Virus record (IMG/VR): IMGVR_UViG_2874945390_000005
Source: a virus
Lineage: Duplodnaviria; Heunggongvirae; Uroviricota; Caudoviricetes
Strand: one strand, 5' to 3'
DNA length: 23,639 nt
The notes under the pieces were generated by a model, which saw nothing but the letters and a program-made list of their open reading frames with translations, was not told the origin of the DNA and ran no database searches. How positions within the stretch are numbered: position 1 is the first letter of the stretch; every line of letters begins with the position of its first letter. The position numbers were made by a program, and so were the translations under genes. This document shows, piece after piece, positions 12,273-13,337 of the stretch.

Positions 12273-12512
12273 TCAGGCTGTTTGCCTTACATGAAGCGGA
12301 ATACCATCTTCCATGTTTAGGTAGTCATGCGGGTTTAGTTCATGGGGAGTTACATTCCAGTCTGTAGCTTTTGCCCATTCAATGGCTTTCCGCCCCTGAG
12401 GCATGTATCTCCCTGTAATAACCCCACTGACAAATCCCTGAGAAACTCCAACAATCGCCGCAAAATCGGCTTGTCTGATAGAGCTTTGTCTCAAGTACTC
12501 GTCAAGAGTCAT
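12273..12512 (-). CDS. Cro-like HTH regulator, divergent from the cI-like repressor
   Basis: ATG at 12512-12510 preceded by GGGAGG. 79 aa with HTH-like segment QADFAAIVGVSQGFVSGVITG. Divergent arrangement with the cI-like gene across a 105-bp spacer. Confidence 0.65.
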   Translation of the reverse strand: MTLDEYLRQSSIRQADFAAIVGVSQGFVSGVITGRYMPQGRKAIEWAKATDWNVTPHELNPHDYLNMEDGIPLHVRQTA

Positions 12513-12617
12513 AGAGATCCTCCCATTTCAATTTTCCGATATTAGCTTACCTGATTTAAATGTCAATAGGCTAGCTATTTGATAAATATTTGTGTTGCTA
12601 ATAAAATTGGAGGCACT
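12513..12617. promoter_or_regulatory. Divergent control region between the cro-like and cI-like genes (presumed operators and promoters)
   Basis: 105-bp AT-rich spacer with short palindromes (GCTAGC, AAATATTT) between divergent start codons. Individual operators not resolved. Confidence 0.4.
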
Positions 12618-13337
12618 ATGACGAAGAAAATTACAATTACTGACAAAGACATCCAGAACGCTGAACGACTGCGCAAAATCTGGGATGAAAAACGGAAACA
12701 GCTATCCCTAAGCCAGGAAAAAGCCGCAGATATCCTCGGCTTCAAAACGCAGGGGGCTGTTAGTCAGTTATTGAACGCAAAAATTGCGTTAAATACTGAA
12801 AATACCCTTAAGTTTGCGGCTTTATTACAGGTTCCTGCGGAAGAAATTAATCCAGATCTGAGTGATTTGTTACGCAGTATTCGTACCCACACACCGGGAA
12901 ACAGGCGTAACCTGTTCGAGAAATATTACGAATATCCGTTACTCTCCTGCGTACAGGCTGGAGCTTTCTCAATGGATGATTTTTCGTACACCGCAAAGGA
13001 TGCGATTAAGTGGATCTCCACCACCACAAAAGCCAGTGACAGGTCGTTCTGGCTGGAGGTCAAGGGGCATTCAATGACCGCGCCGCAGGGTGGTAAACCC
13101 AGTTTCCCCGAAGGGATGCTGATACTCGTTGACCCTGAGCGGGAGATTGAGGATGGCGATTTTTGCGTGGCCCGAATGAATGGCGATGAATTCACCTTCA
13201 AACGATTCATTCGTGAGAGCGGTAAAGCGTACCTGGAGCCACTCAACCCACGATTCGACATGATTGAGTGTAACGAAAACTGCCAGTTTGTCGGAAAGGT
13301 CATAAAGTCGCAGTGGAATGATGAGACTTTTGATTGA
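12618..13337 (+). CDS. cI: cI-type phage repressor (HTH plus LexA-like S24 self-cleaving domain)
   Basis: ATG at 12618 with GGAGG upstream. C-terminal domain is close to lambda CI as recalled ([43 protein letters not shown]...). It retains VQAG-AF, the Ser in GHSMT and the Lys in FTFKRF. Confidence 0.9.

Follow-up and report, generated by a model that had tools for sequence, protein, structure and literature searches.

The DNA analyzed here, called the window in what follows, is the whole 23,639-nt stretch of the IMG/VR virus record IMGVR_UViG_2874945390_000005 (Caudoviricetes), and the element in question is the candidate immunity module of a lambda-like prophage found at positions 12273-13337. 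This region consists of two divergent genes, a cI repressor gene and a small cro-like gene, with 105 bp between them. The mechanical open reading frame (ORF) listing gave the repressor as 12579-13337 (+), starting at the TTG at 12579. The likely start is the ATG at 12618, with GGAGG at 12609-12613 upstream, which results in a protein of 239 amino acids (aa), matching the annotated cI length in phages F039 and Lyz12581Vzw. The genes and the codons relevant to the analysis are the following.

12273-12512, minus strand: cro-like gene for a 79-aa HTH_3 protein, at the head of the rightward (PR) operon.
12618-13337, plus strand: cI repressor gene, 239 aa; N-terminal domain and linker to about 12926, S24 C-terminal domain from about 12927.
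12957-12962, plus strand: cI codons for A114-G115.
13071-13073, plus strand: cI codon for Ser152.
13200-13202, plus strand: cI codon for Lys195.

The cI protein matched the Pfam families Peptidase_S24 (E = 1.7e-28, profile positions 1-116 of 116) and HTH_3 (E = 3.4e-7), and a phmmer search against the PDB aligned its residues 2-238 with the lambda repressor structure 3bdn (E = 4.3e-74); its N-terminal part was aligned with the lambda N-terminal domain with E = 6e-11. The AlphaFold2 model of cI (mean pLDDT 78.8, about 90 for the N-terminal domain) also had 3bdn as its best match; its N-terminal domain contained five helices and matched the lambda N-terminal domain 1lmb (TM 0.86-0.88, root-mean-square deviation 1.6-1.8 Å), and the lambda C-terminal domain 1f39 was matched with a TM of 0.84. 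The motifs VQAGAF (residues 112-117), GHSMT (150-154) and FTFKRF (192-197) were found in coinciding columns of the 3bdn alignment (vqagaf/vqagmf, kghsmt/egnsmt and ftfkrf/ftfkkl), with A114-G115, S152 and K195 corresponding to lambda A111-G112, S149 and K192. The self-cleavage DETERMINANTS of cI is composed of the scissile bond A114-G115, the nucleophile S152 and the general base K195. These four residues were invariant in a four-way alignment of the window cI, lambda cI, P13374 cI and P22 C2, and also in 46 homologues drawn as family members from a search yielding 661 proteins at E ≤ 1e-10, in which Q33 and Q45 (lambda Gln33 and Gln44) were invariant as well. A first-pass annotation, made from the letters of the window alone, had claimed that the Ala-Gly site, the Ser and the Lys are conserved, and had proposed an alignment with the lambda and P22 repressors as a check; the residues are present, and they occupy columns equivalent to those of lambda cI, P22 C2 and LexA. 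The window cI is a repressor of the LexA/lambda-cI type, with the N-terminal helix-turn-helix, the S24 Ser-Lys dyad and the Ala-Gly scissile bond all present. Autocleavage stimulated by activated RecA (RecA*) and SOS inducibility would be expected from this homology and from the near-identity of the C-terminal domain with one already studied (see below).

The DNA-reading part of the protein was found to be far less similar to that of lambda, with 34.8% identity in the N-terminal domain against 64.7% in the C-terminal domain. Helix 2 reads QEKAADIL (residues 33-40) and helix 3 QGAVSQLLN (45-53), versus QESVADKM and QSGVGALFN in lambda; in the AlphaFold2 model they were located at 33-40 and 45-52, respectively. 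Gln33 and Gln44 are retained (the latter as Q45), Gly stands in place of lambda Ser45 and Ile in place of lambda Asn55, and both HMMER and MAFFT placed in the helix-turn-helix a turn one residue longer than that of lambda (GFKT versus GMG). The longer turn was common to all retrieved relatives with this N-terminal-domain type. The divergence of the recognition helix from that of lambda, another claim of the first-pass annotation, is borne out by the helix 3 sequence, the low N-terminal identity and this longer turn. A search with the N-terminal domain alone retrieved only seven proteins, the full-length query being needed for diverged relatives, and no relative was found in a scan of genome contigs with the N-terminal domain. 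The same N-terminal-domain type, including a GF-x-TQ turn, was also present on proteins P0004-P0007 (140-151 aa, one of them named from Serratia marcescens), in which the C-terminus is different and helical-looking and an S24 domain was not recorded; these may be repressors incapable of self-cleavage.

Comparison with phage P13374, the Stx2a (Shiga toxin 2a) phage of the 2011 O104:H4 outbreak strain, revealed that cI is a mosaic. Over residues 104-239, which form the C-terminal domain and contain the cleavage site and the Ser-Lys dyad, the window cI was identical to P13374 cI at 135 of 136 positions (99.3%), whereas the N-terminal domains were 34.8% identical and the whole proteins 71.8%; in the BLAST comparison nucleotide homology to P13374 began abruptly at 12926, in the linker just 5′ of the cleavage site. 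P13374 cI is 61.2% identical to lambda cI, and the same identity to lambda has been published for the repressor of the related phage BAA2326 (PMC5977221). That phage was obtained by mitomycin C induction, and its repressor, purified by Chakraborty et al. in 2018, binds three sites in the right operator (OR), with cooperative binding to OR1 and OR2; a lysogen contains about 18 molecules of it (PMC5977221). Since the C-terminal domain is near-identical to that of P13374/BAA2326, the dimerisation, cooperativity and cleavage half of the window cI is, judged by its sequence, essentially a characterised protein, and the DNA-reading half is not. Family members carrying this N-terminal domain on other C-terminal-domain variants, and vice versa, were also found, so that domain shuffling appears to be routine in the family.

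The spacer between the two genes (12513-12617), where the first-pass annotation had proposed operator prediction, was searched in an unbiased way for sets of three dyads, spaced at 22-25 bp, whose half-sites agree best with one another. The best triple was 12541/12565/12588, with centres 24 and 23 bp apart and a score of 29/36. None of 1000 dinucleotide-preserving shuffles reached 29 (maximum 28), and lambda's own OR scored 28 on the same measure. The predicted operators and the promoter-like sequences, the latter from a consensus scan, are located as follows.

12541-12555: predicted operator OR1, ATTAGCTTACCTGAT, from the de novo triple; one mismatch to ATTAG-N5-CTAAT; adjoins and partly overlaps the PR -10.
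12565-12579: predicted operator OR2, AATAGGCTAGCTATT, centre 24 bp from OR1; overlaps the PR -35 and abuts the -35 of PRM (the repressor maintenance promoter).
12588-12602: predicted operator OR3, ATTTGTGTTGCTAAT, centre 23 bp from OR2; over the PRM spacer and -10.
12539-12566, minus strand: PR-like promoter, -35 TTGACA (12566-12561), 16-nt spacer, -10 TAATAT (12544-12539); consensus scan 10/12.
12579-12607, plus strand: PRM-like promoter, -35 TTGATA (12579-84), 17-nt spacer, -10 TAAAAT (12602-07); consensus scan 10/12.

For footprinting, eight loci with a cI 59-100% identical to that of the window were used, the more distant ones (59-78%, one record named Salmonella enterica) having the same N-terminal-domain type. 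In the eight aligned spacers the outer 5 bp of the half-sites were kept (ATTAG...CTGAT, AATAG...CTATT and ATTTG...CTAAT) and the central 5 bp were variable, the signature that would be expected of repressor contacts. The TTGAC of the PR -35 was kept in the relatives, and the PRM -10 TAAAAT in most of them. When allowed up to two mismatches, ATTAG-N5-CTAAT found OR in every one of the eight loci and nothing at the OR- or OL-equivalent places in P13374 or lambda (OL, left operator). The PRM -10 ends 10 nt 5′ of the cI ATG, so that a transcript with little or no leader is predicted, as for lambda. A hand-derived 12-position pattern, ATTAGCNNNGCTAAT, had given 12 matches versus 9.4 expected at up to three mismatches, which is not significant alone, and it was replaced by the triple-dyad search and footprinting. 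Divergent cI and cro genes with a predicted tripartite operator over PR- and PRM-like promoters, whose hexamers are consensus matches, are the arrangement of lambdoid phages.

A second set of predicted sites was located downstream of cI.

14614-14628: predicted operator OL2, ATTAGCCTTACTATT, one mismatch to the dyad; overlaps the -35 of the leftward promoter (PL).
14636-14650: predicted operator OL1, ATCAGTAGTGCATAT, 22 bp from OL2; degraded here, with three mismatches versus one or two in relatives.
14627-14656, plus strand: PL-like promoter of putative function, -35 TTAACT (14627-32), 18-nt spacer, -10 TATATT (14651-56); consensus scan 9/12.
14543-14557: possible distal operator-like site of uncertain status, ATTATCCTCGCTTAT, two mismatches.

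Each of the other seven loci had a pair of dyads with no more than two mismatches at a distance of 1.5-4.4 kb downstream of cI; the spacing of the pair was 22 bp in six loci and 25 bp in L011. Of the window pair, 14614-28 alone passes this threshold. The half-site cores of OL2 were kept and its centre was variable in Lyz12581Vzw and JNEC-KY204, and an equivalent site was present in loci L006, L007, L009, L010 and L011. The distal site was identical in Lyz12581Vzw and JNEC-KY204, and the more distant relatives gave no match to it. The segment 14428-14649 is common to the window and Lyz12581Vzw, which has the same immunity, and is not shared with P13374; its link to the immunity type is the behaviour expected of an OL travelling with the N-terminal domain. 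A second predicted operator set is located at the PL-like promoter, as in lambdoid phages. This matching OL/PL set 2 kb downstream, the mosaic cI with a P13374 C-terminal half, and the annotation of the module in Stx2a phages go beyond the first-pass annotation.

Two further observations concern operators in the relatives. At the OL-equivalent position of P13374 (L003 8056-8094), a TTTACA/TATATT promoter-like pair is overlain by AGCACCAACGGTATT and ATCACCGCAAGTTAT, which have a spacing of 24 bp; ATCACCGCAAGTTAT includes ATCACC, the half-site of lambda, and ATAACT, one half of the OR1 published for this phage type; no readily identifiable OL was reported for BAA2326 in the 2018 paper (PMC5977221). 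A search for the P13374 OL through k-mers common to its OR and the immunity-specific segment was not discriminating, cross-controls being similar, and its outcome is a lead only. In Lyz12581Vzw (L004 11686-11700) and JNEC-KY204 (L005 9133-9147) a one-mismatch operator dyad (ATCAGTTTTTCTAAT and ATCAGTTTTGCTAAT, respectively) was located about 75 bp upstream of a SocA/Panacea-domain gene absent from the window, which hints that cI may also control that gene in these two.

The 79-aa protein matched HTH_3 of Pfam (E = 1.5e-5), had PHROG 35 ("transcriptional repressor", E = 5e-17) as its best phage-family match, and had as nearest solved relatives 8c7k and 8co2, deposited as "phage antirepressor protein Cro" (E about 1e-4). 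BLASTP gave no alignment with lambda Cro or with P22 Cro, as anticipated by the first-pass annotation, which had described the partner of cI as an unrelated Cro-like helix-turn-helix protein. The Cro of P13374 is visibly lambda-Cro-like, and that of the window is non-homologous to it. Every locus with this N-terminal-domain type had a 79-aa homologue oriented divergently from cI, and the position of the protein points to a Cro role. The 93-aa gene that follows cro had no Pfam match.

A distinct immunity specificity on a lambda-like scaffold, the central proposal of the first-pass annotation, is well supported by these comparisons, and the predicted specificity differs from both that of lambda and that of P13374. 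Specificity of the lambda type would go with operators of the TATCACCGC type and a Gln44-Ser45 helix, and the window has instead the half-site ATTAG (lambda ATCAC), Gly in place of Ser45 and an N-terminal domain with 35% identity; with BAA2326/P13374 only the C-terminal domain is common. It is most improbable that the repressor still reads lambda- or P13374-type operators: in its favour, Gln33, Gln45 and the N-terminal TKK arm are kept and ATTAG has positions in common with ATCAC, but the N-terminal domain is equally remote from both, with the two substitutions and the longer turn described above, the published BAA2326 OR2 had no match in the window at up to three mismatches, the dyad is absent at the lambda and P13374 OR and OL and recurs in relatives with this N-terminal domain, and the cro genes are non-homologous.

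In comparison with the known systems, lambda shares with the window the two-domain cI with its Ala-Gly, Ser and Lys columns and 65% C-terminal identity. Both have three operators (predicted ones in the window) with spacings of 24 and 23 bp, flanked by cI and cro promoters that point in opposite directions; in both, the PRM -10 directly precedes the cI start codon, and PL, some 2 kb distant, has an operator set of its own. Lambda differs in its half-site, N-terminal domain and shorter turn, in having three OL sites versus the two seen in the window, in the sequence family of its Cro, apparently in the N gene after PL, where the window has isrK and C4 RNAs and Rha, and in rexAB, where the window has HicAB. 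Part of the small ORFs of the window was scanned, and the literature reports no N gene in the related phage BAA2326 (PMC5977221). P22 C2 has the same helix-turn-helix and S24 architecture and the four invariant residues; it is 40% identical overall, chiefly through the C-terminal domain, and its Cro gives no alignment with that of the window. BAA2326/P13374 have the same neighbourhood and replication module as the window, and differ in the N-terminal domain, in their Cro and in their operators (published OR1-3 versus ATTAG-N5-CTAAT).

The closest relatives are Stx2a phages. The module formed by cro, OR and the N-terminal domain of cI was present at 98-99% nucleotide identity in 23 phage records, namely Lyz12581Vzw, F039, F004 and LC6454xx Stx2a phages, and in 16 of 5,426 complete Escherichia coli genomes, annotated as "LexA family protein" and "helix-turn-helix domain-containing protein". 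In Lyz12581Vzw (NC_049917), F039 and the O145:H28 short-tailed Stx2a phages (LC6454xx), cI is 98.7% identical at the aa level, with an N-terminal domain identity of 100%, OR differs by one base, and the same 79-aa Cro has four aa differences; an OL/PL segment and replication genes of the helicase type are likewise common to them and the window. These phages differ in being complete, in carrying stx2a, and in having a BsuBI pair and SocA/Panacea between cI and OL, versus HicAB and a decayed genome in the window. In E. coli JNEC-KY204 the module is part of a prophage that still has stx2a, Q and helicase and primase genes of full length, and the HicAB insert of the window is present there too. 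The exchange of immunity modules on a kept repressor scaffold is textbook lambdoid biology. The window module is a heteroimmune repressor/Cro module of the ordinary lambdoid kind and not a new system, annotations of it being available in RefSeq and for Stx2a phages; what is added here is only the computational OR/OL map with its operator motif, the precise mosaic joint, and the persistence of an intact copy in a defective prophage.

The diversity of Stx-phage CI repressors has been catalogued in clades linked to replication-module ("Eru") types, with P13374 as Eru1 (PMC8951638); neither Lyz12581Vzw nor its accessions had a match in the supplements searched. O145:H28 Stx2 phages have been divided into CI-1a and CI-1b subtypes with 68.6% identity, and the same preprint describes K-12 lysogens of both subtypes and phages obtained by mitomycin C induction (bioRxiv 10.1101/2024.03.06.583675). 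This pair is consistent with the Lyz12581Vzw-type and P13374-type pair (71.8% here), and the window cI could be of either subtype. No binding or operator data were found in the literature for this N-terminal-domain type.

The prophage surrounding the module is heavily degraded. At least five transposase-bearing insertion sequence (IS) insertions are present in the window; the DEAD-box helicase gene (9920-11378) has a frameshift near 10273 and has lost its last 20 or so codons at an IS junction (9920), no primase match was found in the window, and for Q and stx, which come next in Lyz12581Vzw, the BLAST comparison gave no counterpart in the window. In addition, the Rha-family gene (15241-15880) is frameshifted near 15325, a stop at codon 21 makes gamL (16477-16758) a pseudogene, and an IS at 17376-18633 interrupts recT. 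Damage to rha and the gam-like gene had been noted in the first-pass annotation, and so had damage to int; the first two hold, and the integrase ORF (1-912) encodes complete integrase domains.

With such decay, and with PL and OL1 weakened in comparison with intact phages, cI and cro might be a silent relic, intact by chance and neither expressed nor functional. This is unlikely, since the cI ORF is full length, its N-terminal domain is identical to that of intact phages, OR is one base away from theirs, and the exact protein was found on at least 1000 contigs. Furthermore, the cI codon differences are overwhelmingly synonymous, with synonymous to non-synonymous ratios of 13:3 versus Lyz12581Vzw, 6:0 versus JNEC-KY204 and 17:1 versus P13374 (C-terminal domain), and cI appears from these counts to be under purifying selection. 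Repressor/Cro-type switches are also reported to be still working in cryptic prophages (PMC8630535).

Just downstream of the PL-like promoter and directly before the Rha-family gene, Rfam matches to isrK (14998-15074) and to a C4 antisense RNA (15099-15186) were found, a layout that resembles the P1-type c4/ant second immunity module. Inactivation of the repressor might on this account proceed mainly through a Rha/ORF6N-type antirepressor under C4/isrK control, the Ala-Gly, Ser and Lys residues being vestigial; relatives encode "anti-repressor" proteins at the same place, and the shorter proteins P0004-P0007 carry this N-terminal-domain type with no S24 domain recorded. That route as the main one is improbable, given the invariance of the cleavage site and catalytic dyad in the 46 homologues, the 99.3% identity of the C-terminal domain to that of a mitomycin C-induced phage, and the frameshift in the window Rha gene; the two routes are also mutually compatible.

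The region is very probably an immunity module with its own specificity, which derives from a temperate phage in the lambda family ("Eru1"/Oslovirus Stx2a-phage lineage) and survives in an IS-riddled and replication-dead prophage; the host is probably a Shigella. This reading has direct support from the domain identity, the equivalence of the residues, the mosaic structure, the conserved and co-occurring operators, the purifying selection and the decay of the prophage. A Shigella origin is suggested by public records with the exact Cro sequence, which are named Shigella dysenteriae and S. boydii, by the window coverage of at most 37% in any complete E. coli genome, and by the IS load.

If this immunity module works as its relatives suggest, the five-helix lambda-like N-terminal domain would read 15-bp ATTAG-N5-CTAAT dyads, and the S24 C-terminal domain would dimerise and support cooperative binding. 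Dimers of cI, presumably still expressed from the PRM-like promoter, would bind OR1 and OR2 as well as OL1 and OL2 and shut PR and PL, repressing the PR operon (cro, the 93-aa gene and the helicase/replication genes) and the PL operon (isrK and C4 RNAs, Rha, kil, gamL, recT and exo), while at higher cI concentration occupancy of OR3 would limit PRM. Activated RecA would trigger self-cleavage at A114-G115 through Ser152 and Lys195, parting the DNA-binding from the oligomerisation domain and leaving the operators to Cro. The exchangeable unit consists of the N-terminal domain together with OR, OL and cro, and the C-terminal domain is common with the heteroimmune P13374/BAA2326 repressor.

Several points weigh against this interpretation. 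The operator and promoter assignments for this repressor type are all computational. The prophage is unable to replicate, its helicase gene being frameshifted and truncated and no primase having been matched, so the switch can no longer decide between lysis and lysogeny here. The PL -35 is TTAACT, versus TTGACT in intact phages, and OL1 has its three mismatches, so the left arm (PL/OL1) may be decaying in this copy. Finally, the Rha/antirepressor module with C4 and isrK downstream of PL leaves room for a second, cleavage-independent route of induction in intact relatives.

Other features of the window were noted. The slot between cI and OL (13459-14339), which in lambda contains rexAB, has a 56-aa ORF (PHROG 28875) with a terminator-like hairpin and, on the minus strand at 13744-14339, a HicA/HicB-like toxin-antitoxin pair; a promoter matching the consensus at 12/12 positions is located at 14397-14369. 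The cargo of this slot in relatives is BsuBI restriction-modification and SocA/Panacea (Lyz12581Vzw and P13374) or a ParE toxin (L006). The IS regions are 2733-3518, 5178-7573, 8719-9875, 17440-18596 and 20380-21219, with one of DDE_3 type and several IS3-family copies, one of which has an ALIL frameshift pseudoknot at 6645-6761. The regions 8719-9875 and 17440-18596 have matching ORF pairs and are apparently two copies of one element, one abutting the truncated helicase end and the other splitting recT. An sRNA-Xcc1 Rfam match (78 bits) at 2051-2134 (-) overlaps the 5′ end of an ORF6N/P22-antirepressor-type gene at 1354-2136, and a second ORF6N gene is present at 3837-4262; the left part of the window, with the integrase ORF, looks like the remains of another prophage region.

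An operator motif and OR/OL map for the immunity type of Stx2a phages of Shiga toxin-producing E. coli (among them O145:H28, O103:H2 and O111 strains) is of modest practical value, and an intact matching repressor in a defective prophage could influence susceptibility to those toxin-converting phages. It is tentatively proposed, as a possibility somewhat short of an even chance, that the intact repressor is a retained (domesticated) immunity gene, which still silences PR and PL, so that kil and the cargo next to it stay under SOS control, and makes its probably-Shigella host immune to Oslovirus-type phages of the same immunity and to Stx2a conversion. If this were true, the phages excluded would be those of the Lyz12581Vzw/O145:H28 type, and the ATTAG-N5-CTAAT code together with the longer turn would define an uncharacterised specificity class among the repressors of Stx phages.

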